A stretch of DNA of 64,000 bases, taken from Gemmatimonadota bacterium. GTDB lineage: Bacteria; Gemmatimonadota; Gemmatimonadetes; Palauibacterales; KS3-K002. The notes under the pieces are model-generated. The model saw nothing but the letters and a program-made list of their open reading frames with translations, had not been told where the DNA came from and did no database searches. Made by a program: the position numbers and the translations under genes. The stretch lies in contig JBDHJU010000011.1 of the NCBI GenBank assembly GCA_039586755.1, positions 14,412 to 78,411 of the forward strand, read 5' to 3'. Below are positions 3,083-35,750 of this stretch, one piece after another (positions within the stretch are counted from its first letter, which is position 1; every line of letters starts with the position of its first letter).

Positions 3083-3939
3083 TTGTCGAGCTCGGCGGCG
3101 TTTTCCTGCATATAGTTGCCGCCCTCGGCGTTCGTCGCGATCGACTTGAAGAGCAGGAACCAGGCACCCACCGGGCCGTACGCGTCCTTGAACCGTACGG
3201 GGATGAAGCGAACTTCCTGGCAGGTCATCTCGGCACCGCCGTAGATCGTGAAGAAGGCGCTGGCGCCGGAGTTGAACGGCGGGTACCAGGAGCGGCCGAA
3301 GCCCTCACCGGTCGAACGCGGCTTGAACACGTGCACCGCACCGCCCATGGCGACCAGCGTGGCCTTTGCCTTGAACACGTAGATCTTATTCTCTCTGACG
3401 CTGAAACCGATCGCGCCCACGCACTTGTCGCCGTCCATCAGCGGGTGCGTGATGAACACGCGCTCGAAGTACTCGCCGCCGGCCTCTGCCAGCGCGTTCT
3501 TTGCCGCCTCAGCAACGATGACCTTGTAGGACTCGCCGTTGATCATCAGCTGCCAACGACCCTCGTGGACGTAGTTGCCTTCCTTGTCCTTCCAAATCGG
3601 CAGGCCCCACTTCTCGAACAGGTGGACAGTCGAGTCTACGTGGCGCGCGATGCTGGCCACGAGGTCCTCGCGGGTGATGCCCATGAGGTCGTTGCGGACG
3701 TAGTCGATGTAGTCCTTAAGACTGTTGTTGCCGCTGTTAAGGTCCACGTACTGGTTAATGGCCGACAGGCCCATGGCCACCGCTCCCGAGCGGTCCATGG
3801 CCGCCTTGTCCACCACGGTGACCTTCAACCCGTTCTTCTTCGCCCAATAGGACGCTTCGACCGCCGCTCCGCATGCGGCCATACCGCCGCCGCAGATAAG
3901 CAGATCGGTCTCAACCGTTACGGTCTCAAAATCCGGCAT
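2908..3939 (-). CDS. aprA: Adenylylsulfate (APS) reductase alpha subunit, N-terminal fragment (frameshifted relative to 2081-3082)
   Basis: MPDFETVTVETDLLICGGGMAACGAAVEASYWAKK... has the FAD-binding fold. It looks AprA-like through IYMQTSDAIKKIADE, then 11 unrelated residues and a stop. Confidence 0.9.
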   Translation of the reverse strand: MPDFETVTVETDLLICGGGMAACGAAVEASYWAKKNGLKVTVVDKAAMDRSGAVAMGLSAINQYVDLNSGNNSLKDYIDYVRNDLMGITREDLVASIARHVDSTVHLFEKWGLPIWKDKEGNYVHEGRWQLMINGESYKVIVAEAAKNALAEAGGEYFERVFITHPLMDGDKCVGAIGFSVRENKIYVFKAKATLVAMGGAVHVFKPRSTGEGFGRSWYPPFNSGASAFFTIYGGAEMTCQEVRFIPVRFKDAYGPVGAWFLLFKSIATNAEGGNYMQENAAELDKWEPYGKVKPRPANIRNWLMMLDVMDGKSPIYMQTSDAIKKIADEAPARPKLGRTSST

Positions 3940-3989: not shown

Positions 3990-4457
3990 CTAGAGCGTTG
4001 GGACCTTGTCCATCTTGACCGGGCCGCGCTCCGTGTTGAGGCCCTGCGGCTCGCACATCAGCGTCGCGCTCTTCAGGTCATCGTCGCCTGTCGGATAGTG
4101 ATCGAACGGCTGAGCCTTACCTTCCTCGACGCCCCTGCGGATCGGGAACTTGAAGCGTTTCGGCTTGATGTCCTTACTGCGGAACTGCAGGGTCCACATG
4201 ATGTCCTCGCTGCTACGCATCGCCGTGACGCTCGCCCCCAGCGGGACGAAGTCCTGGTAACCGCGGACCTCGATAGCCTGCGTCGGGCAGATCTTCACGC
4301 AGCTGTAGCATTCCCAGCACATCTGCGGATCCTGGTTGAAGGCCTTCATGCTATCCTTGTTCAGGACCATGAGATCGTTCGGACAGATGTGCTGGCAGGC
4401 GGTCTTATCGAGCGCCTTGCAACCGTCACACTTGTCCACAATCACGTAACTCGGCAT
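3990..4457 (-). CDS. aprB: Adenylylsulfate (APS) reductase beta subunit
   Basis: MPSYVIVDKCDGCKALDKTACQHICPNDLMVL...MCWECYSCVKICPTQAIEVRGY...DIMWTLQFR shows the characteristic AprB two-[4Fe-4S] ferredoxin domain plus tail. It lies directly upstream of aprA. Confidence 0.93.
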   Translation of the reverse strand: MPSYVIVDKCDGCKALDKTACQHICPNDLMVLNKDSMKAFNQDPQMCWECYSCVKICPTQAIEVRGYQDFVPLGASVTAMRSSEDIMWTLQFRSKDIKPKRFKFPIRRGVEEGKAQPFDHYPTGDDDLKSATLMCEPQGLNTERGPVKMDKVPTL

Positions 4458-4772: not shown

Positions 4773-6965
4773 TCAGGAGCCGATTAGCGAGGGGAGGTGG
4801 TTCTCGATCCACTCCTCGACCTCGTCGACGGCGGCTGAGAAGTGGGGTTGGGAGCGCATGGCGTCTGCGAAACCGGCAACGGCCCGGTCGAGATCCTCGG
4901 CGGTCCAGAGTGATAGGCCGTTCGGCAAGTCGGTCGCGGGGATGGAGCCGAACGTGTTGAAGTCGATGACCCTGAGGGGCTCGGCGGTGAAATCGCGCAG
5001 ACCGCCCAGGGTTTTGGCATCGAAAAGGGGTTCTTGGCTGTCGACGCCGAAGTAGACGAAACCTGCATGGGCGATGGCGCGGGCGACGCCGGCCTCGGAG
5101 TACGACTGGACACGCAGGCGCTTCCCGTGGCCGACGGCACTGCGCAGCAGCTTGAGCTGGCCGTGGTGCCTCCTGTAGATCAGGGTCATCTGGCTCTGAG
5201 GTACGTCGAAGTGCTCGGACAGGGCGGAGAGGATCGAACGCGAAGTAGCCGATCCCCCGATGACGACGTGACGACACTCGTCCATGTGGGCGCCGTCGAC
5301 CTCCTGGACCCGTGCCAGGGCGGCCAGACAGAAGCTGGGGCTGAAACGACCCCATGCGGTCTCGGCTCGTACGTCGCGCGCGAGAGCCACGGCGTTTTTC
5401 ACCAGGCAGGTCGCTCGCGGACCTGCCGTGCCGGCGCGTTCGGCGGTCCGGCAGGCCGTCTGCAGCTGCGCCACCACGTCGGTGTCCCCGGGCAGGGCAC
5501 TATTCAGGCCGCAGGCGGTGCGCATCAGATGATGCCAGGCCTCGAAACCGAGCAGTGTGTTCACCTCTAGCCCTTCGGTCTCGGGACCGTACAGTCGGTC
5601 GCGGATCTGCTCGGCGACCCGCTTCCGCGCCGCGGGGTCGCCCGGATCGGCGAGCCAGCCGTAGAACTCGATCCGCTGACAGGTACTCCAGACGAACGCC
5701 TCGCTGATACCGGGCATCTCCCGCACCGAGTCGAGGAAGCCACGCACTTGTTTACGGGTCTTCCTAACCTTGCCGAAAACCCGGGGACGGCTGTACCGCA
5801 TGCGGGGACCGCGGCCGGAACGGACTCCGCCCTCGAACGAGGCGCCGATCATCACCAGCGACTCGGGCTCGCCGTCACAGAGTTCCAACTCCGGCTTCAG
5901 CCTCAGCAGCGGAACGGGCGCCGGCCGATCCGCCGTCACCGGACGCGGCCCCCTGAGCACCAGATTCCTGAGGGCTGCGACGAACGGCTCGGACGCGTTC
6001 AACCCAGGGCACAAGCTGAGTTGGCCGCCCCCCGACTCGAAGACCTCCCGGCATTCCACGTCGATCTCCCCCAGCGTCTCGAACCCGTCGATCGGCGCCG
6101 TGATCGCACTGACCAGCACCTTCTTCTCACCCGCGTCGGCGAGCTCGGCGAGCCTCTCGCTGATATGGGGGCGGAGCGAGCAGAGCGGCGCCGGGTGGGT
6201 CAGGAAGCCTAGCGAGGCCCTTTCCAGCGGCCAGCCCAGTCGGTCGGCGACCAGCCTGACCGTCCGTCTCACCTGACCCGTGTAGAGGGCCCCCCCCTGG
6301 CCCCGCGAGGCCGGCTGGCCGTGAGCGCAAAAGACCAGGTGCGCCTCATCCGGCCACAGGCCCTCCGACGCGGCATAGTCGGCGATAATTCGGGCCTGCG
6401 CTTTGACGTAACCCACGTCGTCATACCAGGTGGATCGAAGCGCCACATTGATGTGCTGCCCCCTGTGCCTCAGCACTCGGTGCAGCTCGCGAAGGATGGT
6501 GCCGGACGTGGCACGGTTGAACTGAGGGTACATCGGCACGACCACCAGATCGTCGATGCCGTCGGCTTCTACCTGGCTCATGACGTCGGCTATCTTCGGC
6601 TGGCCGTAGCGCATGGCCACGTAAACGGCCCAAGCCTCGGGCAGCGCCGCGGCGAGGGCCGAGGCCTGATCCGACATGAGGACCGCCTGCGGAGCTCCGC
6701 GCACGTCCCAGACTTTGCCGTACAGATCGGCTGAGGGGGCAGCCAGGCGCCCGGCCCGCATACGGCCGAGACCCCGCTGAAGCCAGTTCAGCCCCTGAGG
6801 CCACTTGACGAGCGAGGAGTCGGTGAATGACTCCGCCAGCAGCTTGCGCACCGATGGAACGTCGGGCCGATCGGGCGCTCCTAGACCGACCAGCAGGACG
6901 CCCCGGCGTCGCGAAGCCTGTGGTGGGCGATCCGCGCCCAATGACGGCTCTGTCTGGAGGTTCAC
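4773..6965 (-). CDS. Fusion protein: N-terminal ferrochelatase (HemH/class II chelatase) domain plus C-terminal glutamyl-tRNA reductase (HemA)-like domain
   Basis: 730 aa. N-terminal half: VLLVGLGAPD...VVVPMYPQFNRATSG...VFCAHGQPASRG...IDGFETLGEIDVE, a ferrochelatase pattern. C-terminal half: AFVWSTCQRIEFYG (the GluTR catalytic-Cys STCNR-E motif), ALPGDTDVVAQL, and a degenerate VVIGGSATSRSI nucleotide-binding site. Confidence 0.7.
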   Translation of the reverse strand: MNLQTEPSLGADRPPQASRRRGVLLVGLGAPDRPDVPSVRKLLAESFTDSSLVKWPQGLNWLQRGLGRMRAGRLAAPSADLYGKVWDVRGAPQAVLMSDQASALAAALPEAWAVYVAMRYGQPKIADVMSQVEADGIDDLVVVPMYPQFNRATSGTILRELHRVLRHRGQHINVALRSTWYDDVGYVKAQARIIADYAASEGLWPDEAHLVFCAHGQPASRGQGGALYTGQVRRTVRLVADRLGWPLERASLGFLTHPAPLCSLRPHISERLAELADAGEKKVLVSAITAPIDGFETLGEIDVECREVFESGGGQLSLCPGLNASEPFVAALRNLVLRGPRPVTADRPAPVPLLRLKPELELCDGEPESLVMIGASFEGGVRSGRGPRMRYSRPRVFGKVRKTRKQVRGFLDSVREMPGISEAFVWSTCQRIEFYGWLADPGDPAARKRVAEQIRDRLYGPETEGLEVNTLLGFEAWHHLMRTACGLNSALPGDTDVVAQLQTACRTAERAGTAGPRATCLVKNAVALARDVRAETAWGRFSPSFCLAALARVQEVDGAHMDECRHVVIGGSATSRSILSALSEHFDVPQSQMTLIYRRHHGQLKLLRSAVGHGKRLRVQSYSEAGVARAIAHAGFVYFGVDSQEPLFDAKTLGGLRDFTAEPLRVIDFNTFGSIPATDLPNGLSLWTAEDLDRAVAGFADAMRSQPHFSAAVDEVEEWIENHLPSLIGS

Positions 6966-7459
6966 GGCTGGGGTTTGAGCTTGCGATCCTGGCCGATGAG
7001 ATCGGTGATCTGGTCGCGTGTGCGTCTCGCCAGCGCCGGATCGCGTCCATCGGTGAAGACGGCGATCGTGACGTCCTCACTTTGCAGCAGAGCTCCAAAG
7101 ATTACCTGCGAGCGCTCGGCCGATGACGCGTCGCACGCCAGTGCGCCGTTCCGAACTGCAGCTTGGACGACGGCGGCGTTGCGGTCATCCTCATCCGTGG
7201 CGGCGACGGCGAGGAACTTGCTACCCATGTGCTCTTCGCGGAACGAGTCCTGTACCCAGCGGACGCGGCCGGCCTCGATCAGCTGGGCGAGCTCGTCTGT
7301 AACCTCGGGTGATACCACGGTAACGACGGCCCCGGCATGCGTGAGGGTGATGACTTTGCGAGTCCCGACATTTCCGCCACCCACGACCAGGCAGTCCTTG
7401 TTCCGGACGTCGAGTCCTAGCGGCAGAAAGCGTAGCCTGTCCGAGGGGTCGCTGGTCAT
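6962..7459 (-). CDS. sirC: Precorrin-2 dehydrogenase / sirohydrochlorin ferrochelatase-type protein (SirC / CysG N-terminal domain-like)
   Basis: LPLGLDVRNKDCLVVGGGNVGTRKVITLTHAGAVVTVVSPEV...LAVAATDEDDRNAAVVQAAVRNGALAC is the typical siroheme synthase N-terminal Rossmann domain. GTGA overlap with the downstream fusion gene. Confidence 0.75.
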   Translation of the reverse strand: MTSDPSDRLRFLPLGLDVRNKDCLVVGGGNVGTRKVITLTHAGAVVTVVSPEVTDELAQLIEAGRVRWVQDSFREEHMGSKFLAVAATDEDDRNAAVVQAAVRNGALACDASSAERSQVIFGALLQSEDVTIAVFTDGRDPALARRTRDQITDLIGQDRKLKPQP

Positions 7460-7488: not shown

Positions 7489-7941
7489 TCAGTGGCCGAC
7501 GCTCAATATACCGCTCGCCGCGAGTGTCAGGATGGCAGCCTCCAACAGGGCCATGACCACGTAGGGCGTATCTCGTTTCTTGATTAGCGTGGGGACGATT
7601 CCCAAGAAGCAGAAGATGGTCACTGCGGAAAGCACGGCGATCCCCAGAAAATTCAGATAGTCACCCTTTCCGATCACGGACAGCCAGGACCATCCGGATA
7701 TCGGGTGCTCATGGTGCAGGTGGTCGTGATTCGTCGCCTCCAGATAGTCGTGGACGTTCATCGTCCAGTACTCGGGGAGTTGTTCCACCGGAACGGCCGG
7801 CGCAACGATGCCGCTGGTGTAAAGGGCAAAGGTCACGAGTAGGAGGGCCAGCCCGAAGTACATGCCGGTCTGGAGGATCTTGGCGTAGAGGAGTTGTTCC
7901 TCGTCAGCGCCAGGGCAATCTACGTTGCCGTTCGTCTCCAT
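7489..7941 (-). CDS. Small polytopic membrane protein, possibly the DUF1634-type partner of TauE/DUF81 permeases
   Basis: 150 aa with about four hydrophobic helices and a His-rich loop (HDHLHHEH). It lies 15 nt downstream of the TauE-like gene. The family assignment is from memory of gene-neighbourhood patterns only. Confidence 0.4.
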   Translation of the reverse strand: METNGNVDCPGADEEQLLYAKILQTGMYFGLALLLVTFALYTSGIVAPAVPVEQLPEYWTMNVHDYLEATNHDHLHHEHPISGWSWLSVIGKGDYLNFLGIAVLSAVTIFCFLGIVPTLIKKRDTPYVVMALLEAAILTLAASGILSVGH

Positions 7942-7956
7942 GTTTACACTCGCTCC

Positions 7957-8910
7957 CTAAACGATGAACGGGAGGCCGAGTCCCTTGGTGATCGCCTTGG
8001 CCCCGGCGAAGAGCAGCAGGGCGATGACGACCCAGCGAACGAACCCCGGCCTCGCGATCCGCAGGATTCGTACGCCGATAAACGACCCCAGCATTATGCC
8101 TACCAGTGACGGCACTACCATCATTGGGATTACGGCGCCCTTGTTAACATAGATCCAGGCCGCCGACGTGTCAGTGATTGACAAAAGGAATTTGCTGGTC
8201 GCCACACTGACCTTGAGCGGCGCTCCCATCACCAGGTTCAGAACCGGGATGTTGGCCCAACCGGCGCCCAGTCCGAACATCCCCGCCATCACGCCTATAA
8301 CAATGAACAGTAGCAAGCCGGGCACAGTACGGTGAACCTTCCAGTTGATCGTCTGACCCATGCTCGCCTCTGTGTACACGCCACAGATCCGCAACGCCGA
8401 AGAGACACGGTCTGGCTCAGCGACCTCCGGGAACACCGATTTCTTCGCTGCGATCATTATCGCGACAATCCCCAGGATGGTCGCTCCGAGGGCTGTCTGG
8501 ACAATATTCGTCGGTAGAGCGAGGCCGATCATCGCTCCGACGATCGCACAAGTCGAGGCGATCAGGGCCACAGGCATCGCCAGGCGCAGGCTGGCCAGGT
8601 TCATCTTCAGGAAGCCCGGCCCGGCGGCGAGCGCGCCGCTTAGCGCCACCAGAAGCCCACAGCCGCGAACGAAGTCGAGGTGGAAGGGAAAGAACCCACT
8701 CACGATCGGAACGAACAGAACGCCTCCGCCCACACCGCCCAGAGCCGCGAGGATGCCCATGACGAACGTGAGCACGAACAGGATGAGCGGCCACACCCAC
8801 CATGCTGTCGTGCTGCTGGAGACCGCTGGCGCCGTCAGATCGCTCGCCTGGATGACGGTTGGGTAGAGCAGCAGGAAAAGGCAGAGAAGTGCGCCCGTAA
8901 GATACGGCAT
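7957..8910 (-). CDS. tauE: TauE/SafE (DUF81) family sulfite/organosulfonate anion exporter
   Basis: Polytopic and Gly-rich: LGGVGGGVLFVPIVSGFFPFHLDFVRGCGLLVAL...GLGAGWANIPVLNLVMGAPLKVSVATSKF. The likely start is MPYLTGALLCLF at 8910. The ORF is open to 8988, but that extension looks like a relic of another gene (see findings). Confidence 0.75.
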   Translation of the reverse strand: MPYLTGALLCLFLLLYPTVIQASDLTAPAVSSSTTAWWVWPLILFVLTFVMGILAALGGVGGGVLFVPIVSGFFPFHLDFVRGCGLLVALSGALAAGPGFLKMNLASLRLAMPVALIASTCAIVGAMIGLALPTNIVQTALGATILGIVAIMIAAKKSVFPEVAEPDRVSSALRICGVYTEASMGQTINWKVHRTVPGLLLFIVIGVMAGMFGLGAGWANIPVLNLVMGAPLKVSVATSKFLLSITDTSAAWIYVNKGAVIPMMVVPSLVGIMLGSFIGVRILRIARPGFVRWVVIALLLFAGAKAITKGLGLPFIV

Positions 8911-8965
8911 GAATCGTCGCGTTCCTAAGATGTTCACCTGGCCTCGACTCGGGGTTCCACGCGAC

Positions 8966-8984
8966 ATCGTGATAATCGCACGAT
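8966..8984. promoter_or_regulatory. Perfect 6-bp inverted repeat ATCGTG-N7-CACGAT upstream of tauE
   Basis: Plus strand atcgtg (8966-8971), ataatcg, cacgat (8979-8984). It lies 56-75 nt upstream of the probable tauE start and shares the AATCGTG core with the aprBA upstream repeats. Confidence 0.35.
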
Positions 8985-9183
8985 TCAACCTGATGCGAGA
9001 TATGCTCGGCGGCGCGCGGTGTCAAGCTGAGCGGAGTGTGGGCTGTCTCATCGCTGGAGAAAGGTCGAGCAATATGATATCTTGCGGTGGCCGCTTTTCT
9101 CGTGCGAGGCCTCGCGACGTATTGCGCCTCGCGAGTCCGAAGGCGCTCAGCATCCACGCGAGCCCACATGTGGGCCAGGAGTC

Positions 9184-9834
9184 ATGAGCACGACTGAAGA
9201 TCGGGAAGCGGCGTTTATAGGCAAGATAACCGCCGGCGCCACCCATGAGCTCCGCAACGTTCTGGCAATCGTAAAAGAATCTGCGGGCCTGATCGAAGAC
9301 ATCGTCAATTCCCCCGACAAACCTGGGACAGATAAAGCCGACAGGCTAATGCGGCCGATTGCGCGGATTCGGGACCAGGTCGAGCGCGGATCGGAGCTCC
9401 TCACGAGCCTGAATCGATTCGCCCACAGCATGGATCACGCAGAGGACGAGACCGACCTGAACGAGATGGCCGAGCTGCTCGCGTTCCTATGCCAGCGAGC
9501 GGCCAGAAGGGGGAGGCATCTGGTAGAAGCGCAGCCGGGGGACCAGGCCCTGACGGTAGTGGCCAACCTGCTTCGGCTGCAGATGGCTCTGCACGCAGCC
9601 GTCGAGTGCTGTCTTGAGCAGTTGCCCGAGCGTGGCAAGCTGACCCTCAAGGCGGTTCGGCACGGAGATCGACCGGCGCTCGAGTTCAATGGTGAGTCCG
9701 AGGGTGAGGCAGTTTCATTCGTGCCAAACGAGGCCGCAGCTTGGAGCCGGCTGGCGGCGGTCCTCGACGACCTGGATGCATCGGTGGAGAAAGCCGAAGC
9801 AGAGCAGGGTTTCCGGCTCGCCCTTTCGGGGTGA
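9184..9834 (+). CDS. Soluble histidine-kinase-like protein with an intact H-box but a degenerate ATP-binding domain
   Basis: MSTTEDREAAFIGKITAGATHELRNVLAIVKES contains the HisKA H-box. I could not recognise N, G1 or G2 boxes in the C-terminal half. CAGGAG lies upstream of the ATG at 9184; the ORF is open from 9082. Confidence 0.55.
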   Translation: MSTTEDREAAFIGKITAGATHELRNVLAIVKESAGLIEDIVNSPDKPGTDKADRLMRPIARIRDQVERGSELLTSLNRFAHSMDHAEDETDLNEMAELLAFLCQRAARRGRHLVEAQPGDQALTVVANLLRLQMALHAAVECCLEQLPERGKLTLKAVRHGDRPALEFNGESEGEAVSFVPNEAAAWSRLAAVLDDLDASVEKAEAEQGFRLALSG

Positions 9835-9858
9835 TGCGAGCTTGGCAGTGGGGAGGAT

Positions 9859-10785
9859 TTGATGAGCAAAATCAAGCTGCTCCTCGTCGATGACGAAGAA
9901 GCCTACGTAAAGACGCTGGCCGAGAGAATGGAGATGCGCGACGTCGGCAGTCGCGTGGCCTTGAGCGGCGAAGAGGCGCTGGAGATGCTCGAGGACGAGC
10001 CGCCCGACGTGATGGTTCTCGACCTCCGCATGCCGGGCATCGACGGGATGGAAGTGTTAGAGCGGGTCAAGCAGAAGCATCCCCACGTAGAAGTGATCAT
10101 TCTCACCGGGCACGGCTCGGACAGAGAGGAAAAGGAGGCGCGCAGGCTGGGGGCGTTCGAGTACCTGCAGAAGCCGGCGGATACGAGTCACCTCCTGAAT
10201 ACCGTTCGGGCGGCTTGGCGAAAGAGCTTGAAGGCCGCCGCCGAGTTCATCAAGGACTCGCAGGAAGAATTCGACAGGAGCATGGCTGCGGCAGCTTTCG
10301 CTGAGGCGGGCGCGCCGGAGATCGCCAGGGAGACGATGCAGGAGTCGACCCCGCGACCCGACGTGGACACCGATGAAGCCGGCGCCGCGGAGGCCGACGC
10401 CGCCACTCAGACGCTCAAGGTCCTGTTCGTTGATGACGAAGAGGACTTCGTGCGGACCATGGCCGAACGAATGGAGATGCGCGACGTGGGCAGCGAGGTG
10501 GCGCTGGATGGACAGCAGGCATTGGAGATGCTCGAGGACGAAGTACCGGACGTCATGGTTCTCGACCTGCGTATGCCGGGCATCGACGGCTTGGAGGTAT
10601 TGCGGCGCGTCAAGAGGACGTATCCAGAGATGGCAGTGATCATCATGACCGGCCATGGGTCGGAGGCGGACGAAGCAGAAGCTCGCCGCTTGGGGGCGTT
10701 TGATTACCTGACCAAGCCGGTCGACATCAATCAGCTCATGGATGTTATCCGCGAAGCGGGTCGCTCGCGTCGGAAAGCGGAGTAG
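9859..10785 (+). CDS. Tandem double-receiver (REC-REC) response regulator with no output domain
   Basis: Two CheY-like domains. Each has DD (LLVDDEE / LFVDDEE), a phospho-acceptor Asp (VMVLDLRMPGIDG in both), T (ILTGHG / IMTGHG) and K (YLQKP / YLTKP). An acidic or Ala-rich linker joins them. Confidence 0.85.
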   Translation: MMSKIKLLLVDDEEAYVKTLAERMEMRDVGSRVALSGEEALEMLEDEPPDVMVLDLRMPGIDGMEVLERVKQKHPHVEVIILTGHGSDREEKEARRLGAFEYLQKPADTSHLLNTVRAAWRKSLKAAAEFIKDSQEEFDRSMAAAAFAEAGAPEIARETMQESTPRPDVDTDEAGAAEADAATQTLKVLFVDDEEDFVRTMAERMEMRDVGSEVALDGQQALEMLEDEVPDVMVLDLRMPGIDGLEVLRRVKRTYPEMAVIIMTGHGSEADEAEARRLGAFDYLTKPVDINQLMDVIREAGRSRRKAE

Positions 10786-10809
10786 GGATGGGCGGTCGGG
10801 TTAACGAAG

Positions 10810-12573
10810 ATGATGGTGGAGACGGTAAGCCTGGTTGACGGAACGGGGGAAGATCAAGATCAACTGATCTCCCGACGGCGCTACAGGAAGATGATTCTCG
10901 TGGCGGTGCTTTCGGTATCGGCTGTAGCCGTCGCTCCGCTTCTCATCATGTCGAGTATTACCTACCACCAGTATCAGGAGGCGTTCCGAGCTGAGCTGAC
11001 CCGCCCCATGCTGCGGTTCGCCGTGGCCGGTAAGCAGGCGATCGAGTCCTACCTCTCGGAGCAGGTAGCGGCTCTCGCCATGGTGGCGCGCGAGACGTCG
11101 CTCAAGGAGCTTCGTGACCCGGGAAGGTTGAGCTCGTTGCTCACCAACATGAACCAGACCTTTGGCGGAGTGGTCGAGCTCAGCATGATCAACGAGGGGG
11201 GCGTGCAGGTCGCCTATGCCGGTCCGGGGGAGCCGCAGGCGGTCAGCTACGCGGACGATCGGTGGTTCCGAGAGGTCAGCGCCCGCGGCACGTACGTTAG
11301 CGACATGTTCCTGGGGCACCGAAACGACCCCCACATGGTTGTCGCGATCCAGCACGAAGACTCGGAAGGGAATCGGTACATCTTACGTGCGACGCTCGAT
11401 ACCGATCCATTCCACTGGCTAGTGCGCGCTCGTACGGCCCGCCGTCCGGAACTCAACCAGGTCTGTCGCAGATGCCATTCGCTGGGGGCCCAACAATTCA
11501 GCGACGCGTTCATCGTCAACCGCGAAGGTGTCCTGCAGAGTTCCTCGCGTCTTTATGGCGGCGTGTTGGAGCGCACCCCCTTACCGACTTTTCCGTACAG
11601 CAGTCAGGTGGAGCTTGTCGATGTAGTGGACGAGCAGGGAGAGCCGCTCATCGTATGTTACGCGCAGATCGATCGCTCGCCGTTTACGCTGGTGGTGTTG
11701 AGTCCTCGCATCGCTCTGCACGCGGGTTGGTTCCCGCTGCGCCGCGACCTGCTGGTATTTCCGGCGATCAGCGTCGCGCTGATTCTGGCAGTCGTCATCT
11801 GGGGTTCGATCTACGTGGTGAACCGCGTTCGCGAGGCGGATGCAAAGCGCGCGGCGCTCTACCACAAGATGGAGTACACCAACAAGATGGCCGCTATCGG
11901 GCGCCTGGGTGCCGGTGTGGCTCACGAGATCAACAACCCGCTGTCGATCATCACCCAGAACGCGGGACTGCTGAAGGATCTGATCACGCTGTCCGAGGAG
12001 TTACCCCCGAGGGATAAGCTGACCCATCTGGTGAATTCGGTTCTCAACGCCGCCGAGCGCTGTGGTGGGATTACCCACCGTCTCCTGGGTTTCGCCAGGC
12101 ACATGGAAGTGCAATGGGAGACTATCGATCTCGATGGGTTGCTCAGAGAAGTCCTGGAGTTCCTTGGGAAGGAAGCCAGCTACCGTGACATCCAGATCGA
12201 ATTCAAATACTCCGGTACGCCGCCTCCCATCGTCAGCGACAGGGGGCAGTTGCAGCAAGTGTTCCTGAACATCGTCAACAATGCTTTCGCCGCAGTCGAT
12301 GATGGTGGGCAGATCGAGATTGGGATTGAACAGCTTGGGGACGACGCCGTTGCGGTGACCATCGCCGACGATGGCGTAGGCATTCCTGAGGAACAGCTGG
12401 GGCAGATCTTCGATCCGTTCTTTACGACGAAGAAAGGTGCGGGGACGGGCCTGGGTCTCTCCATTACATATGGGATAGTGCAAAAACTGGGTGGGCAGAT
12501 CAGCGTCGAGAGCAAGGTGGGTGAAGGTACCTGCTTCACAGTCACACTGCCGATACGTCGGGCGCACGCCTAG
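10810..12573 (+). CDS. Membrane sensor histidine kinase with a periplasmic double-Cache-like domain
   Basis: TM1 near residue 30 and TM2 LLVFPAISVALILAVVIWGSIYVV. H-box AAIGRLGAGVAHEINNPLSII, N-box QVFLNIVNNAFAA, G-boxes DDGVGI and GTGLGLSI. The periplasmic segment contains CRRCH. Confidence 0.85.
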   Translation: MMVETVSLVDGTGEDQDQLISRRRYRKMILVAVLSVSAVAVAPLLIMSSITYHQYQEAFRAELTRPMLRFAVAGKQAIESYLSEQVAALAMVARETSLKELRDPGRLSSLLTNMNQTFGGVVELSMINEGGVQVAYAGPGEPQAVSYADDRWFREVSARGTYVSDMFLGHRNDPHMVVAIQHEDSEGNRYILRATLDTDPFHWLVRARTARRPELNQVCRRCHSLGAQQFSDAFIVNREGVLQSSSRLYGGVLERTPLPTFPYSSQVELVDVVDEQGEPLIVCYAQIDRSPFTLVVLSPRIALHAGWFPLRRDLLVFPAISVALILAVVIWGSIYVVNRVREADAKRAALYHKMEYTNKMAAIGRLGAGVAHEINNPLSIITQNAGLLKDLITLSEELPPRDKLTHLVNSVLNAAERCGGITHRLLGFARHMEVQWETIDLDGLLREVLEFLGKEASYRDIQIEFKYSGTPPPIVSDRGQLQQVFLNIVNNAFAAVDDGGQIEIGIEQLGDDAVAVTIADDGVGIPEEQLGQIFDPFFTTKKGAGTGLGLSITYGIVQKLGGQISVESKVGEGTCFTVTLPIRRAHA

Positions 12574-12582
12574 GAGCGGCAC

Positions 12583-12969
12583 ATGGACCCCTTACGTGTT
12601 CTGATCGTCGACGACGAAGCCGAGCTGGTCACCGCCCTGGAGGAGCGGCTCAACCTGCGGGGGTTCGAGGCCAGGGGTGTGACGACCGGCGCCGATGCGC
12701 TCGCGCTACTCGCCGAGCTGCCGTTCGATGTGGTGCTACTGGACTTGAAGATGCCGGGGCTCGGCGGGTTGGAAGTCATCAGGAGGATCAAGCAAGAGCA
12801 ACCGGGGCTAAAGGTAATCCTGTTAACAGGTTGGGGCTCCGAGGAAGACGCCGAAAAAGGGAAGGCACTCGGGGCCTACGACTACCTGATGAAGCCCGTG
12901 AAGATCAGCGACCTGGTGCGGGTCCTGCTCTCCGCCTGTGACCGGGAGGAGGAGGAAAGAGAAGAATGA
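12583..12969 (+). CDS. Single-domain response regulator (CheY-like receiver)
   Basis: VLIVDDEAE...VVLLDLKMPGLGG...LLTGWG...YLMKP, with an acidic C-terminal tail. Confidence 0.85.
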   Translation: MDPLRVLIVDDEAELVTALEERLNLRGFEARGVTTGADALALLAELPFDVVLLDLKMPGLGGLEVIRRIKQEQPGLKVILLTGWGSEEDAEKGKALGAYDYLMKPVKISDLVRVLLSACDREEEEREE

Positions 12970-13397
12970 ACGAGAGCACCGTGCTGCTCGTCGATGACGA
13001 GGAGGAGTTCGTCGAGGTCTTGGCGGAACGGTTGGAGACGCGCGGTCTCACGGTGGACACCGCGGGGGACGGCGAGCTGGCGTTGGAGAAGGCGGGGAAG
13101 CGGTCGTTCGATGCCATCGTCCTCGATATGGCCATGCCGGGCATGGACGGCATCGAAACTCTCAAGGGGCTGCTCCGGATCAACCCGGACCTGCAGGTCA
13201 TTCTACTGACCGGTCGCGCGACCCTGGGCCAGGCGGTGGAGGCGATGAAGCTGGGGGCGTTGGATTTTCTGGAGAAGCCGGTAGACATCGAAACGCTGGT
13301 GGCGAAGATCGAGGAGGCGGCGACGAAGAAATCGTCACTCAAAGAGAAACGCATCGCGGACAAACTGTCCGACATCATGCGAAAGAAGGGCTGGTGA
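12966..13397 (+). CDS. Single-domain response regulator (CheY-like receiver)
   Basis: VLLVDDEEE...AIVLDMAMPGMDG...LLTGRA...FLEKP. 4-nt overlap with the preceding receiver gene. Confidence 0.85.
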   Translation: MNESTVLLVDDEEEFVEVLAERLETRGLTVDTAGDGELALEKAGKRSFDAIVLDMAMPGMDGIETLKGLLRINPDLQVILLTGRATLGQAVEAMKLGALDFLEKPVDIETLVAKIEEAATKKSSLKEKRIADKLSDIMRKKGW

Positions 13398-13927
13398 CAG
13401 TGGAAGCCATGAGGCGCATCAAGGAAATCATGATTCCCGTGGAGCAGTACCCCTCGGTGCGGGACAACGCCACGCTACGGGAAGCGATTGTGAAGATCGA
13501 GGAAGCGCAGCTCGAGGTCGAACTGCGCAAATCTCTGCCTCGTGTGCTGTTGGTGTTCGATGAGATCGACGTGCTGGTCGGGACGGTTCGGCGCCGCGAC
13601 ATCATGAGAGGTTTGGAGCCGAAGTATCTGCTTAGCAAGCCACTGGAGTACAAGAAGAAGCTGTTTGATATAGCTGTAGATCCCAATCTAGCGGAGCTTT
13701 CCTACGATCGGGTCGTACGAGGGATCAGGGAGCAGTCGAATAGGCCGGTGAGCGATGTGATGCAACCGATTCCAGCGATCCTCGATGCCGAGGATCACGT
13801 CATGAAGGCAGTGCAGGCGATGGTCGCTCTCGACGTCAACCTGATTCCGGTGCTTCGGGAGGGGAAGCTCGTCGGTGTCGTGCGGTCGGTCGACGCGTTT
13901 CACGACCTGGCCCAACTGGTGAGATAG
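13394..13927 (+). CDS. CBS-pair domain protein
   Basis: IKEIMIPVEQYPSVRDNATLREAIVKI...LVGTVRRRDIM and VSDVMQPIPAILDAEDHVMKAVQAMVALDVNLIPVLREGKLVGVVRSVD are two CBS motifs. GTGA overlap with the upstream gene; an alternative ATG lies at 13409. Confidence 0.8.
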   Translation: MTVEAMRRIKEIMIPVEQYPSVRDNATLREAIVKIEEAQLEVELRKSLPRVLLVFDEIDVLVGTVRRRDIMRGLEPKYLLSKPLEYKKKLFDIAVDPNLAELSYDRVVRGIREQSNRPVSDVMQPIPAILDAEDHVMKAVQAMVALDVNLIPVLREGKLVGVVRSVDAFHDLAQLVR

Positions 13928-13968
13928 TAGCGGCCCTATTTGGGACCGCTCGCGAGGTCGTCGCTACC

Positions 13969-15498
13969 ATGACCGATGAGGCGTTGTCCGAGAGAGTGAC
14001 AGCCATACCCGGCGCCGGGGGAGTCGAGCTGGCTCGCCCGAAGGGCGCCGATGAGACCCAGGAGGCTGATTGGAAGAGGATTGTCTTCATCCTGCTGGGC
14101 TTGGTTCTCTTCGTTCTGGTTTACATCGCGCCCATGCCGGATCCAGCGGTGGACCCACAGGGCCAGGCCTTCCCGCTGACGCGGGAGGGTAAGGCGGCGC
14201 TGGCTCTGTTCTTCCTCGCGGCGACCTGGTGGGTTACCGAGGTGATCCCCATCGGGGTAACCAGCATCGCTATCGGCGTGTTCCAGGCGCTGTTCTTGAT
14301 TCGCCCCGCCCGTGTCGCCCTCACCGATTTCATGGATCCGTCGGTCTGGTTCATCTTCGGCTCGCTGGTCTTCGGGATGGTCTTTACCAAGACCGGTCTC
14401 ACACGGCGGCTGGCGTACAAGATGCTGTCGCTGGTTGGAGAGCGGACGAGCATGATCTATCTCGGCTGTTACGTGATGACGGCGTCGCTGACGCTGGTCA
14501 TGGCGCACACGGCTGTGGCCGCCACCGTCTTCCCGCTCTTCCTCGCCATCTACGCCCTGTATACCGAAGAGAGTGAGCCGACGCGATTCGGTAAGGGATT
14601 GTTCATGGGGATGGCCTTCGTCGCCGGCGCCGGCAGCATCATCACGTTGCTCGGCGCCGCTCGCGGCGCGGTGGCGATCGGTTTCTTCCGGGACATCTCG
14701 GGCCGGACGATCAGCTTCTTCGAGCTGAGCTACTACATGCTTCCGGTCGGCTTGGTGATGACGGCCCTCCTCTGGGCCTACTTCATGCTCTACTACCCGC
14801 CGGAGGAGAAGACGATTCCCGGACTGCGGCAACGAGTTCAGAGCCTGTACGCCAGGCTGGGCCCCATCAGCCGTAACGAGATCATGGCTGTAGTGATCGT
14901 CTTCTCGACGATAGTAGTACTGAGCCTCCGCTCTTTCATTCCCGCCCTGGAGCCGCTCGACAAAAGTGCGATAATCCTCGTCGCTACGGTCCTGTTCTTC
15001 GTGTTTAGGGTCGTGTCATTGGAGGACCTGGAGCACACCTCGTGGAACATCGTGTTGCTGTTCGGCGGCGCGATGAGCATCGGTTTCTGCCTGTGGCAGA
15101 CGGGTGCGGCGGAGTGGCTGGCGGTAAAATGGCTTGGCCTGCTGCACGGCACACATTGGCTGTTCTTCGTGATTGGTGTGGCGGCGTTCGTTCTCGTGAT
15201 GACCAACCTGATCATGAACGTCGCGGCTATAGCTATCACGGTGCCGGTGGCGTTGGTCATTGCTCCATATGTAGGAGTTGCCCCCGAGGTGATCCTCTTC
15301 GCGTCGCTCGTTGCCGCGGGGATGCCCTTCCTGCTGCTGGTCGGCGCAGCACCCAACGCCATCGCCTACGCAAGCAACCAGTTCACTACGGGAGAGTTCT
15401 TCCGGGCGGGGATCCCGGCCAGCCTGCTGCTGCTCGTGGTGCTGGCGCTGTTCGTCTGGGTGATATGGCCGGCGATGGGGATGCCGGTGCTGTTATAG
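13969..15498 (+). CDS. DASS/SLC13-type (ArsB/NhaD superfamily) anion:cation symporter, candidate sulfate transporter
   Basis: 509-aa polytopic protein: FLAATWWVTEVIPIGVTSIAIGVFQALF...GGAMSIGFCLWQTGAAEWLA...AAPNAIAYASNQF, the typical SLC13/DASS pattern. The sulfate substrate is inferred from context only. Confidence 0.7.
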   Translation: MTDEALSERVTAIPGAGGVELARPKGADETQEADWKRIVFILLGLVLFVLVYIAPMPDPAVDPQGQAFPLTREGKAALALFFLAATWWVTEVIPIGVTSIAIGVFQALFLIRPARVALTDFMDPSVWFIFGSLVFGMVFTKTGLTRRLAYKMLSLVGERTSMIYLGCYVMTASLTLVMAHTAVAATVFPLFLAIYALYTEESEPTRFGKGLFMGMAFVAGAGSIITLLGAARGAVAIGFFRDISGRTISFFELSYYMLPVGLVMTALLWAYFMLYYPPEEKTIPGLRQRVQSLYARLGPISRNEIMAVVIVFSTIVVLSLRSFIPALEPLDKSAIILVATVLFFVFRVVSLEDLEHTSWNIVLLFGGAMSIGFCLWQTGAAEWLAVKWLGLLHGTHWLFFVIGVAAFVLVMTNLIMNVAAIAITVPVALVIAPYVGVAPEVILFASLVAAGMPFLLLVGAAPNAIAYASNQFTTGEFFRAGIPASLLLLVVLALFVWVIWPAMGMPVLL

Positions 15499-15520
15499 GA
15501 GCGACTGCTGGCGTGAGGGA

Positions 15521-16339
15521 CTAGGGGTACGGGTCAAACCACTCGACGTTCAGGCGAACCTGATCTACGCCCGGTACCGAGCGGGCGATCTCCACGATCT
15601 CTTGCCCCATCCGGCCGGACTTGAGGGCCGGAGCGCTGCCGGATACCTCTATTACTCCGTCGTGCCCTTCGATCTGGAGATCGAGGACGCGAGTCTCGCG
15701 CGTGCTCGCCAGGGCGGCCTTGACCCGAGACGCCATACGGAAGTCCATGAGCTTTGCCTTCACTTCGGGGGTGACGGCGAAGTCCGGCTGCCTCACCGCC
15801 CGCGCCACGATATTGCAGGCGGCGGGCACCGACAGGGTCTGCAGGTTGATCACCATATCGTACAGTGCCGGATCCTCGATGTCCTCACCGTACATCATCT
15901 TGACCCAGCGGGCCCGCGCTGCGTCGACGTGCTGTATGTACTCTTCGGCTGAAGTCGGGGTCATTTCGTTACGCTCCAGCAGCGTAGACACTCGTGCGCC
16001 CATGGGAGCGATCAGGCGCACCCGCAAAACAGCTGGAAGTCCCGCGAGCAGCATTTGCCCAGCGCGACCGTGGTAGACCAGATCTCCGCCGACGGTGTGT
16101 TCGGCGAGGGCTGCCTGGATTGTCGCGATGTAAGCACGCCGTACCGACGCGTGCCGCTTCCACAATCTCGGGGCGCGCTCCATCGCGCGGCTCAGCTCCT
16201 GCTCTGAAATACCGAGCTCAGAGGCCGCATCCTGAAGGACCTCCCGCGCAACCAGCGGATACTGAAGTTCCTCAGCAAGGCATTCCGCCAGCGCCTGGCC
16301 GCCGCTTTGCGTGCCCCGACAAATACTTATAATAGCCAC
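15521..16339 (-). CDS. Cytidylate-kinase-like family (Cytidylate_kin2-type) protein with a C-terminal BON domain
   Basis: MAIISICRGTQSGGQALAECLAEEL is the family-typical N-terminus and lacks the Walker-A Lys. C-terminal part: VKAALAS...LQIEGHDGVIEVSGSAPALKSGRMGQEIVEIARSVPGVDQVRLNV, a BON-like pattern. Confidence 0.6.
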   Translation of the reverse strand: MAIISICRGTQSGGQALAECLAEELQYPLVAREVLQDAASELGISEQELSRAMERAPRLWKRHASVRRAYIATIQAALAEHTVGGDLVYHGRAGQMLLAGLPAVLRVRLIAPMGARVSTLLERNEMTPTSAEEYIQHVDAARARWVKMMYGEDIEDPALYDMVINLQTLSVPAACNIVARAVRQPDFAVTPEVKAKLMDFRMASRVKAALASTRETRVLDLQIEGHDGVIEVSGSAPALKSGRMGQEIVEIARSVPGVDQVRLNVEWFDPYP

Positions 16340-16342
16340 GTC

Positions 16343-16990
16343 TCAGCCTTCTCCCGCCTGTTGGAGCTGCTCGCGGCACTTGGCTGCAAAGGCTGCGAGC
16401 TTCTGCTTCACATCGTCGGTCATCTCGTACTGTGGCTGTGCCGCCGCTTCTGCGATGATCTCGCACGCCGTCTCGAGGGAGATCGACTGCAGGTTGATGG
16501 TTAGATCGTATAACGAAGGATCCTCGACATCCGCCCGGTACATCAGCTTCACCCAACGCCGGCGGTCTTCGTCCACGTCTTGAATGAACTCCTCGGCCGC
16601 CTTATGGGTCATGCGGTGGTGCGAGTCCATCAATGCCCGCATGCGCATCTCGAGCGGCGCGATGAGCCGGACAGCCAGTACGCCGGGAAGCTCACGCAGC
16701 AGGAATTGCCCGGCCAGTCCGTGGTAAACCACTTCACCGGTCGTACAGTGCTCGGCCAGGGCAGTCTGAACGGCGAGCAAATACGTCTTGCGCTCCTGGG
16801 TCAGTCGAGCCCAGCGAGATGGGGTCGCCTCGAGCTTGCCGCTCAGATCCTCCTCTGACGCTCCTAACTTCTTGGCGGCCTCCTGAAGGATCTCGCGCCC
16901 GACGCAGGGATAGTTGAGCGCGCGGGCGAGACACTCCGCCGTCGCGCGGCCTCCGCTAAGCGTTCCACGGGAAATCGTAATAATAGCCAC
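16343..16990 (-). CDS. Cytidylate-kinase-like family (Cytidylate_kin2-type) protein, paralog of 15521-16339
   Basis: MAIITISRGTLSGGRATAECLARALNYPCVGREILQEAAKKLG is colinear with its neighbour over about 200 aa (VYHG.AGQ.LL..LP.VL.VRLIAP...RRRWVK.MY..D.EDP.LYD..INLQ). There is a 3-nt gap to the next gene. Confidence 0.6.
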   Translation of the reverse strand: MAIITISRGTLSGGRATAECLARALNYPCVGREILQEAAKKLGASEEDLSGKLEATPSRWARLTQERKTYLLAVQTALAEHCTTGEVVYHGLAGQFLLRELPGVLAVRLIAPLEMRMRALMDSHHRMTHKAAEEFIQDVDEDRRRWVKLMYRADVEDPSLYDLTINLQSISLETACEIIAEAAAQPQYEMTDDVKQKLAAFAAKCREQLQQAGEG

Positions 16991-17190
16991 GATGCGGTCC
17001 TTTCAGGCGCGTCGTTGGCATCTTTGGAGGTTGGGGGGGCAAATCGTGCCCAAGAACAAGATAGGGTCAAAGCCCGGGGGCGGGAAACCGGTGGCCTGTA
17101 GCTGCCCGCTTGTGAGTTGTGGGAACCTCGGGCAGATTGTCCCGGCCAATCCGACCCGAGTTACCGCAGACCCGCACAGGAGGATACGCC

Positions 17191-17634
17191 TTGAGGAGCA
17201 GATATCTGGTAATCGTGTCACTGGCTTGCGCGGCCGCGTTCGCGGCGGGAGCACTCGCGCGCCAGCCCGCCGCGTCGGGTCAGGAGGCGTCGCCGGAGTC
17301 GTCGAAGCTCGCCGTGCTGTGGAGCAGCGGCGACCGGGACGTGGCGTTGAAGATGGTCTTCATGTACACGCTTAACGCCGAGCGACGTGCCTGGTTCGAC
17401 GAAGTCCAGCTCATCGTGTGGGGGCCCTCGTCGAAGCTTCTCTCGGTCGACGAGGAGTTGCAGGCCGCTATCCGGGAGATGGGTGAGGCCGGTGTGGAGC
17501 TCGTCGCCTGCAAAGCGTGCGCCGACAGTTACGGAGTGTCGGAAAAATTGGAGGAGCTAGGCGTCGAGGTGAAGTACATGGGCGTGCCGCTCACCGAGAT
17601 GCTCAAGAGAGACTGGGTGGTGGTGACGTTCTGA
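17191..17634 (+). CDS. DsrE/DsrF-like family protein with a predicted N-terminal signal peptide
   Basis: TTG at 17191 lies 6 nt after GGAGGA. LRSRYLVIVSLACAAAFAAGALA looks like a signal peptide. The mature part reads LAVLWSSGDRDVALKMVFMY...LIVWGPS...GVELVACKACADSYGV...VKYMG, DsrE-like. Confidence 0.6.
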   Translation: MRSRYLVIVSLACAAAFAAGALARQPAASGQEASPESSKLAVLWSSGDRDVALKMVFMYTLNAERRAWFDEVQLIVWGPSSKLLSVDEELQAAIREMGEAGVELVACKACADSYGVSEKLEELGVEVKYMGVPLTEMLKRDWVVVTF

Positions 17635-35713: not shown

Positions 35714-35750
35714 GCTCAGCCAGTTGTGGCCAATTCGCGGAGGGATTCCA

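Follow-up and report, generated by a model that had tools for sequence, protein, structure and literature searches.

Tandem PF13189 genes of a Gemmatimonadota sulfur island encode kinase-fold proteins with a degenerate P-loop and a recurrent TauE permease neighbor

The ckA and ckB genes

The DNA analyzed here, referred to as the window, is a stretch of 64,000 nucleotides (nt) from a Gemmatimonadota bacterium (contig JBDHJU010000011.1). It contains two adjacent genes of the Cytidylate_kin2 family (PF13189), designated ckA and ckB, both of which lie on the minus strand and begin with a GTG start codon. The ckA gene (16343-16990) encodes a protein of 215 amino acids that has no BON domain. The ckB gene (15521-16339) encodes a protein of 272 amino acids comprising a PF13189 domain (residues 1-185), a linker helix and a BON domain. 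A spacer of 3 nt (16340-16342, minus strand) separates the ckA stop codon from the ckB start codon. A first-pass annotation of the window had described two colinear PF13189 genes 3 nt apart, and these coordinates bear out that description.

Purine-rich, ribosome-binding-like motifs are located upstream of both genes. For ckA, AAAGGA is found 8 nt upstream of the GTG start; for ckB, the motif GGAGAAGG is situated within the 3' end of ckA, a position that is consistent with translational coupling of the two genes. Both proteins match PF13189 over profile positions 1-174 of 176, with scores of 125.4 bits (ckA) and 129.7 bits (ckB) against a gathering threshold of 28, and they are 53% identical to each other across 206 residues (E=3e-76). 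Among the matches listed, the homologs that share 100-53% identity with the window proteins come nearly all from Gemmatimonadota metagenome-assembled genomes, and their lengths are strikingly constant at 272 amino acids for ckB and 215 for ckA.

The pair is flanked by the two neighbors named in the first-pass annotation, a DASS permease gene (13969-15498, plus strand) convergent with ckB and a DsrE-like gene (17119-17634, plus strand) divergent from ckA. The C-terminal part alone of the DsrE-like open reading frame (ORF) matches PF02635 (E=1e-6), together with a weak YedF-like match (TIGR03527, E=5.5e-5); the same divergent ORF accompanies ckA in loci L004 and L005, which belong to the rearranged lineage described below. 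A promoter and terminator scan of positions 15300-17300 detected no sigma-70-like promoter and a single terminator-like site, which is the chance level, and such a scan is uninformative for this phylum. None of the PADLOC anti-phage defense models matched the ckA, ckB, TauE, DUF1634-like or DsrE-like proteins.

Family and fold

With ckA as the query, an exhaustive phmmer search of 1.84 billion cluster representatives returned 4239 relatives at E<=1e-3, of which 1153 were at E<=1e-10. A set of 150 sequences was assembled from 148 of the best phmmer representatives and the window ckA and ckB proteins. The best 150 of the 4239 relatives fall mostly into two length classes, proteins of ~265-283 amino acids that combine the kinase-like (ck) domain with BON, and a long form of ~455-520 amino acids designated ckL. 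PF13189 is matched by all 150 scanned sequences, and the domain scan detected BON in 67, CBS in 8 and REC in 2 of them. Both the PF13189 family and its combination with BON are already present in databases. In the literature searched, PF13189 is named in just two records, a study of DolP and BON domains (PMC7806268) and its bioRxiv preprint.

The AlphaFold2 model of ckB has a mean predicted local distance difference test score (pLDDT) of 89.9 and a predicted template modeling score (pTM) of 0.86. The best Foldseek matches are 3HDT (E=3.2e-9) and 3FDI (E=5e-9), with TM-scores of 0.78-0.84 normalized to the target, followed in rank by cytidine monophosphate (CMP), shikimate and adenylate kinases. 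A profile of ckB orthologs matched 3FDI among the PDB sequences at E=4e-13. Apart from OsmY and DolP, which matched the BON region, the search of PDB sequences for a characterized relative yielded just 3FDI and 3HDT, which are structural genomics entries.

3FDI (Eubacterium ventriosum) and 3HDT (Clostridium symbiosum) resemble ckA and ckB in family, in fold and in having a glycine-rich loop that lacks the Walker lysine (GREFGSGG and EREYGSGG, respectively). In contrast to these two structures, the subfamily to which ckA and ckB belong exhibits the signature S-R-G-[ST]-x-S-G-G, a Y-H-G motif that replaces V-G-R and a conserved tryptophan, W145, and it bears BON or transmembrane extensions and is linked to TauE. 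3FDI and 3HDT carry no assigned function and therefore shed no light on the mechanism of the ck proteins.

The CMP kinases, represented by E. coli Cmk and by the archaeal-type model TIGR02173, have the nucleoside monophosphate (NMP)-kinase/P-loop kinase fold in common with ckA and ckB, but they possess a GxxxxGK[ST] loop that is missing from the window proteins. Matches to TIGR02173 are weak, 40.9 and 43.3 bits (E ~1e-10) against a cut-off of 102.1. The absence of GxxxxGK[ST] and scores so far below the cut-off argue against a cytidylate kinase identity; the fold of ckA and ckB is NMP-kinase-like, but the proteins are most probably not CMP kinases. A structure-based search for the ligand site had been recommended by the first-pass annotation. 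Foldseek provided the NMP-kinase-like fold, but hhalign against E. coli Cmk aligned just 29 N-terminal columns with a probability of 1.2%, and for this reason no claim is made for a retained CMP or NMP site.

Degenerate loop and conserved cleft residues

The N-termini of the pair, MAIITISRGTLSGGRA and MAIISICRGTQSGGQA, contain GK[ST] in neither case. The ckA loop reads S7-R-G-T-L-S-G-G-R15-A16, with arginine at the position of the Walker lysine, and the ckB loop reads C7-R-G-T-Q-S-G-G-Q15-A16, with glutamine at that position. The claim that GK(S/T) is missing from the P-loop is thereby upheld (GTLSGGRA in ckA and GTQSGGQA in ckB), as is the attendant doubt about canonical kinase activity, given that both the Walker lysine and the Ser/Thr are absent and the TIGR02173 cut-off is missed. 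The loss is a trait of the whole subfamily and of 3FDI and 3HDT, and is not locus-specific.

Across the 150 sequences, S7, R8, G9, S12, G13 and G14 are conserved at 71-87%. Position 15, equivalent to the Walker lysine, is unconstrained (K 26%, R 20%, E 17%, Q 8%), and position 16, equivalent to the Ser/Thr, is most often alanine (27%) or glutamate (24%). Conservation of 83-99% is found for R8, Y89-H90-G91, R108, R116, D139, R142, W145 and D161. In the model these residues are placed on the loop after strand 1, at the end of strand 3, and on strand 4 and the lid helices. In NMP kinases these structural elements form the walls of the cleft in which phosphoryl transfer takes place. The sequence pattern suggests that this arginine-rich site accommodates an anion and is unsuited to Mg-ATP phosphotransfer.

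Residue frequencies were also determined for 120 listed homologs each of ckA, ckB and ckL. Position 15 is basic in 93% of the ckA orthologs and the residue following YHG is always leucine. In the ckB orthologs position 15 is glutamine in 63% and basic in 19%, and YHG is followed by leucine or arginine. Position 16 is mostly alanine in both groups. Position 15 is basic in 86% of the ckL proteins, and arginine follows YHG in all 116 homologs, out of the 120 listed, in which the YHG motif was found. This complementary loop pattern of ckA, ckB and ckL looks like sub-functionalization after duplication.

BON domain and membrane attachment

The BON domain of ckB spans residues ~191-268 (15536-15769, minus strand). 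Its match to the Pfam model PF04972 is borderline (27.5 bits against 27, E=3.8e-6); a profile of 42 ckB orthologs, however, matches OsmY (8RJX, E=2.4e-9) and DolP/YraP (7A2D, E=0.0015). The secondary structure of the model (H191-212, E222-226, E229-237, H243-253, E260-268) corresponds to the α-β-β-α-β topology reported for the BON domains of DolP (PMC7806268). In the same study, the BON2 domain of DolP is described as binding anionic phospholipid (PMC7806268).

OsmY and DolP each have two BON domains and are secreted, as periplasmic proteins or lipoproteins, whereas ckB has a single BON domain, a cytoplasmic N-terminal kinase-like domain and no signal peptide. Neither a signal peptide nor a lipobox is recognizable at the ckB N-terminus, where MAIISICRG forms strand 1 of the kinase fold in the model, and a crude hydropathy scan assigned no transmembrane segment to 96 of the 120 ckB homologs. 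The BON domain is predicted to be cytoplasmic because the signal peptide is lacking.

According to the first-pass annotation, the downstream gene of the pair had gained its BON domain. The domain is indeed present in ckB, but the polarity of the change is the reverse. In a neighbor-joining tree of the kinase-like domains, the ckA clade (91% bootstrap) and the ckB clade (79%) are sisters (62%), and single ck-BON proteins of 277 amino acids from Acidobacteriota, Terriglobia and Planctomycetota fall outside them. Since the outgroups are single ck-BON proteins and ckA and ckB are sister clades, the BON domain is ancestral and was lost by ckA, which retains an alignable first helix of the BON region and nothing further of it.

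In the long form, ckL (~500-535 amino acids in the loci examined), the ck domain is joined to a BON-like region and to 2-3 transmembrane segments, which are predicted in all 120 homologs, and the loop often reads GxxxxGKE. The ckL gene is always followed by a second TauE gene, and usually by genes for a REC protein and a HAMP histidine kinase. This module is conserved across phyla; examples are L006 12411-15022, L003 14785-17497, L086 8001-16857 and L087 8001-12689. A ckL-TauE2-response regulator locus (L079) is also present in a metagenome-assembled genome that bears the name of Anaeromyxobacter dehalogenans, of which cultures exist. Two PEP-utilizer/PPDK_N genes are interleaved in the ckL loci of Latescibacterota.

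Gene neighborhood in related genomes

Loci were collected from one genome per GTDB species, 78 in total. Neighbors were called by tblastn with reference proteins and a partial Pfam check; calling by the longest downstream ORF was dropped because high G+C content yields spurious long ORFs. A gene of the TauE/SafE family of sulfite exporters (TauE) lies within 700 nt downstream on the same strand in 76 of the 103 ck gene runs that have at least 1 kilobase (kb) of downstream flank. The order ck followed by TauE comes up in loci that carry ten different phylum labels (Gemmatimonadota, Acidobacteriota, Planctomycetota, Chloroflexota, NC10, Latescibacterota, Sumerlaeota, Anaeromyxobacter, Pseudomonadota and Thermodesulfobacteriota), and this cross-phylum recurrence is a stronger argument than the run count. 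The identity of TauE was confirmed by Pfam in the Acidobacteriota locus L043 and the Dehalococcoidia locus L061, and was also recorded in the precomputed annotation of long contigs.

Of the 43 Gemmatimonadota loci, 38 have tauE directly after ckB and 20 have a dsrN-like gene directly upstream of ckA. The ckA-ckB spacing is 2-4 nt in most Gemmatimonadota loci, and tauE there is always followed by a DUF1634-like gene. In the precomputed annotation of long contigs, the conserved cluster opens with dsr(M)KJOP, dsrA, dsrB, a small ORF and genes for a DsrL-like protein and a DsrN-like a,c-diamide synthase, which precede ckA and ckB. After ckB come tauE and the DUF1634-like gene, in some cases joined by ckL, tauE2 and genes for a response regulator and a histidine kinase; the cluster ends with sirC-like, cbiX, cobA-hemD and ferrochelatase-GlutR_N genes and a two-component/CBS/DASS block. 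At one such locus, the scores of DsrA, DsrB, DsrO and DsrP exceed the equivalog cut-offs of NCBIfam. The ORF of 84 amino acids at the dsrD position has no Pfam or NCBIfam match and is not called DsrD. The ckA-ckB pair is not one of the named dsr accessory genes (dsrN, dsrL, dsrD, dsrT, dsrR/S). Like them, it holds a fixed position in the dsr cluster of Gemmatimonadota, between the dsrN-like gene and tauE, but its linkage to dsr is restricted by lineage.

Histidine kinase and response regulator genes adjoin most of the modules. The ckL-TauE modules of other phyla are adjacent to a response regulator and a histidine kinase, with no recognizable sulfur enzymes beside them. In Acidobacteriaceae/Terriglobia (L060, L065-L068, L082), tandem ck-BON pairs are followed by a DUF202 membrane protein and not by TauE; they have a divergent ckL-TauE2 pair on their upstream side and, ~4 kb downstream, a histidine kinase gene paired with TauE. 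The first-pass annotation had anticipated that the family would be associated with sulfur genes elsewhere. This holds in so far as TauE and, in Gemmatimonadota, the dsrN-like gene recur at the frequencies given above; the steadiest partner is TauE, however, and not apr, sat, dsr or DASS genes as such.

Rearrangement in the window lineage

The tauE gene of the window (7957-8910, minus strand; PF01925, TSUP family permease), which in relatives is located directly downstream of ckB, is followed by a gene for a DUF1634-like membrane protein of 150 amino acids (7489-7941, minus strand). The window copy of this protein has no Pfam match, and its ortholog in L006 matches DUF1634 below the Pfam threshold. 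Next are a sirC-like gene (6962-7459, minus strand; NAD_binding_7) and a ferrochelatase-GlutR_N fusion gene (4773-6965, minus strand; PF00762 and PF05201). Both belong to the siroheme/tetrapyrrole genes found after tauE and the DUF1634-like gene in the conserved cluster.

Between ckB and tauE is a block of plus-strand genes (9082-15498) that encode, in order, a product of 250 amino acids, a double-REC protein, a dCache/HisKA histidine kinase, two REC proteins, a CBS pair and the DASS permease. In relatives (e.g. L001 14844-20819) this block shares the strand of ckA and ckB and comes after the siroheme genes. In the window lineage it has been inverted and inserted between ckB and tauE, and this lineage is among the exceptions to TauE adjacency. 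The ORF of 250 amino acids has no Pfam match in the window; its L006 ortholog has a weak HisKA match (E=0.0015).

A relic of the 5' end of ckA, 45 nt long (8940-8984, minus strand), is preserved directly upstream of tauE and covers the start-codon region and ~14 codons. When aligned, with one gap, to the start region of ckA, it is identical at 36 of 46 positions, a score that was reached by 0 of 500 shuffles, and ckB gives no comparable match at these positions. A 1-nt deletion affects the start codon, and the relic encodes AIITMSRGTPSRGQ in frame with the region upstream of tauE. It is kept in L004 and L005. The third copy of the family reported at tauE by the first-pass annotation is therefore real as a sequence, but it is a rearrangement scar and not the product of an expansion. 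Since the relic abuts tauE, the ckA-ckB pair was ancestrally in front of tauE, and the intact pair must descend from the copy that ended 6.5 kb away from it. Co-transcription with tauE has been lost in the window because of this distance and the inverted block.

Searches by tblastn found no match for DsrA, B, L, N, O or P within the window, and no dsr gene is located upstream of ckA in the window or in its close relatives L004, L005 and L008. Persistence of intact ckA and ckB orthologs of fixed length without an adjacent dsr gene argues against a strictly Dsr-specific role.

Proposed function and alternatives

The conserved context suggests an undescribed membrane-associated regulatory partner for sulfur-anion transport. 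Specifically, it is quite conceivable, if somewhat short of probable, that ckA and ckB are membrane-associated, non-catalytic proteins that bind a ligand and act as a partner of the TauE permease, often wired to two-component systems. According to this proposal, ckA and ckB, being non-catalytic or at least non-canonical, would probably assemble into a heteromer on the cytoplasmic side of the inner membrane and would serve as an accessory or regulatory partner in contact with the TauE/TSUP permease and its small DUF1634-like membrane partner. The arginine-rich cleft formed by the conserved residues listed above, without the Lys and Ser/Thr required for Mg-ATP phosphotransfer, may bind an anionic ligand such as a nucleotide or an oxyanion of sulfur or phosphorus. 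Attachment of the complex to the membrane would be the task of the BON domain in ckB and of a C-terminal transmembrane hairpin in ckL. Occupancy of the ligand site would modulate transport, and perhaps also the adjacent two-component signaling. Given that the Gemmatimonadota module resides within a dissimilatory sulfite reductase cluster, sulfite, or a sulfur oxyanion related to it, is the most likely transport substrate in that phylum.

The BON domain of ckB, the transmembrane segments of ckL and the phospholipid binding of DolP point to the membrane, and the CBS and REC fusions (8 and 2 of the 150 sequences) together with the histidine kinase and response regulator neighbors point to regulation. 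A heteromer would be in keeping with the conserved tandem spacing of 2-4 nt and with the tandem ck-BON pairs of Acidobacteriaceae. The view of the first-pass annotation that a regulatory or binding role is preferable to catalysis fits these data.

Precedents for such an arrangement exist. CBS pairs, RCK/TrkA, and ArsA with ArsB are cytoplasmic regulatory or accessory partners of transporters. In the guanylate kinase-like domains of MAGUK and CaV-beta proteins, the NMP-kinase fold has lost its P-loop chemistry and now serves as a membrane-proximal channel-binding module. The common concept is a soluble module of nucleotide-binding fold whose gene lies beside, or is fused to, that of the transporter. 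Beyond the fold class, however, ckA and ckB share neither homology nor motifs with these systems, and the relationship is one of analogy, not membership. A wider proposal would make the entire SRG-x-SGG/YHG subfamily of PF13189 a pseudo-NMP-kinase turned into a dedicated auxiliary subunit of TSUP/TauE permeases, tethered to the membrane by BON or by the ckL hairpin, and a prokaryotic counterpart of the guanylate kinase-like domains of MAGUK/CaV-beta. In Gemmatimonadota, a duplicated and sub-functionalized ckA-ckB heteromer would react to a nucleotide or oxyanion signal by gating the passage of sulfite for DsrAB. This extension appears doubtful as a whole.

Several observations weigh against a TauE partnership. 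The loci were chosen by the motif GxLVYHG[LR][AT]G, so that one subfamily was sampled, and the 103 runs are not independent throughout, many of them being from related Gemmatimonadota. In 27 of these runs the downstream neighbor is another gene, encoding a DUF202 membrane protein, a histidine kinase or response regulator or, in distant relatives (~35% identity), a TadA-like deaminase. In the window itself, ckA and ckB are 6.5 kb from tauE, beyond the inverted block. No fusion of ck with TauE was found among the 150 representatives or in the Pfam annotation of 360 listed homologs. BON domains are typically periplasmic, and a membrane-binding role in the cytoplasm would be an extrapolation. Lastly, the basic residue at position 15 of ckA and ckL may permit some binding of nucleotide phosphate or slow hydrolysis.

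Alternatively, the ck proteins might be signaling adaptors which, with TauE as a co-sensing membrane partner, control the neighboring histidine kinase and do not gate transport. The order ckL, TauE2, response regulator and histidine kinase (HAMP-HisKA-HATPase) occurs in Gemmatimonadota, Latescibacterota, Pseudomonadota and an unassigned metagenome contig, the order at an NC10 locus is ck, histidine kinase and TauE, a response regulator follows the ck pair at a Desulfobacteraceae locus, REC and CBS are fused to the ck domain, and the pair in the window abuts the histidine kinase/four-REC/CBS/DASS block. Yet the ckA-ckB-tauE unit of the dsr clusters has no immediately adjacent histidine kinase or response regulator, and TauE, not a histidine kinase, is the first neighbor in several single ck-TauE pairs of Acidobacteriota and Chloroflexota. 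An adaptor function, which is compatible with the TauE partnership and not exclusive of it, is judged improbable as the explanation. The version advanced by the first-pass annotation is a purely conjectural sensor of adenosine 5'-phosphosulfate (APS), 3'-phosphoadenosine 5'-phosphosulfate (PAPS) or adenosine monophosphate (AMP) that regulates dissimilatory sulfur metabolism. It would suit an NMP-kinase fold with a conserved cleft rich in Arg and Asp, the presence of aprBA within the same island, the 20 Gemmatimonadota loci (of 43) in which the pair is enclosed by the dsrN-like gene and tauE, and the occurrence of dsrP directly upstream in one Acidobacteria contig and of dsrA 10 kb away in a Terriglobia contig. 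However, the alignment to Cmk offers no residue-level mapping of a nucleotide site, the same module is also found in loci without recognizable sulfur enzymes, and dsr is not upstream in 23 of the 43 Gemmatimonadota loci, and such a sensor is given little chance.

If the proteins are active after all, R8 and a basic position 15 could replace the Walker lysine in a non-canonical ATPase or kinase that energizes TauE, as ArsA does for ArsB, or phosphorylates a small molecule. The glycine-rich loop S-R-G-x-x-S-G-G is kept, R8 is 85% conserved, K or R occupies the Walker-Lys position in most ckA (93%) and ckL (86%) proteins, and ckL has its invariant arginine after YHG. Against catalysis, the Mg-coordinating Ser/Thr is replaced by Ala or Glu, the Lys position is unconstrained across the subfamily and is Gln in ckB, and the scores with the CMP kinase model are 41-43 bits against 102; activity of this kind seems hardly likely. 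The remaining explanation is an accessory factor dedicated to Dsr or siroheme, which might, for example, help to mature the siroamide cofactor. It would account for the order dsrN-like, ckA, ckB, tauE, DUF1634-like and sirC-like/cbiX/cobA-hemD/ferrochelatase-GlutR_N in many Gemmatimonadota. Outside this phylum, though, TauE is the conserved neighbor without dsr or siroheme genes, and the window lineage keeps ckA and ckB intact (orthologs 100-85% identical and of fixed length) at a locus that has no dsr; a factor of this type is judged very improbable.

Other features of the window

Still present in the island are aprB, a split aprA, tauE, the DUF1634-like gene, the siroheme genes, the DASS and DsrE-like genes and two sulfatase genes. 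The aprA gene (2081-3939, minus strand) consists of two overlapping ORFs in different frames, 2908-3939, equivalent to TIGR02061 positions 1-321 (E=7e-137), and 2081-3082, equivalent to positions 325-614 (E=5e-122). Either a frameshift/pseudogene or an assembly error in the region of 2908-3082 accounts for the split. Just upstream of aprA is an aprB-like ORF (3990-4457) that begins MPSYVIVDKCDGCK and was assigned by its sequence alone. A CxxCxxCC (PF03692) protein and a Cys-rich ORF of 124 amino acids are encoded directly downstream of aprA on the minus strand, at 730-1626 and 1623-1997, and may be electron-transfer partners of APS reductase that replace Qmo.

The fusion of ferrochelatase with the N-terminal domain of glutamyl-tRNA reductase is unusual for the tetrapyrrole pathway. 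Proteins of this type, 664-730 amino acids long, are also encoded in L001 (12813-14807) and L006 (17680-19740), and their genes come after sirC in the dsr/tauE clusters of Gemmatimonadota. Elsewhere in the window, the ORFs 35628-36758 and 36766-37773 (plus strand) have weak matches to PI3_PI4_kinase (PF00454; E ~1e-6) and are followed by a metallophosphoesterase gene; an adjacent pair of this kind is unusual for a bacterium.

Significance

TSUP/TauE permeases are abundant in sulfur-metabolizing prokaryotes, and their substrates and regulation are poorly defined. Nine of them are reported in Desulfovibrio vulgaris (PMC5840216), in a comparison of transporters in sulfate reducers that stresses how scant the knowledge of TSUP proteins is (PMC5840216). 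A literature search retrieved no paper that links cytidylate kinase-like proteins to TauE/TSUP permeases or dsr clusters, the mentions of 'cytidylate kinase-like' being incidental, and none that describes a ck-TauE module; the ckA and ckB genes are not mentioned in the papers retrieved on dsr in Gemmatimonadota.

The label 'cytidylate kinase', currently applied by JGI, should not be used for the ck genes. If the proposed partnership with TauE is true, it would give both the PF13189 and the TSUP families a testable function, and the Gemmatimonadota-type dsr cluster would gain a fixed but unnamed component. A further benefit would be a handle on the movement or sensing of sulfite or related anions in uncultured lineages that bear dsrAB.

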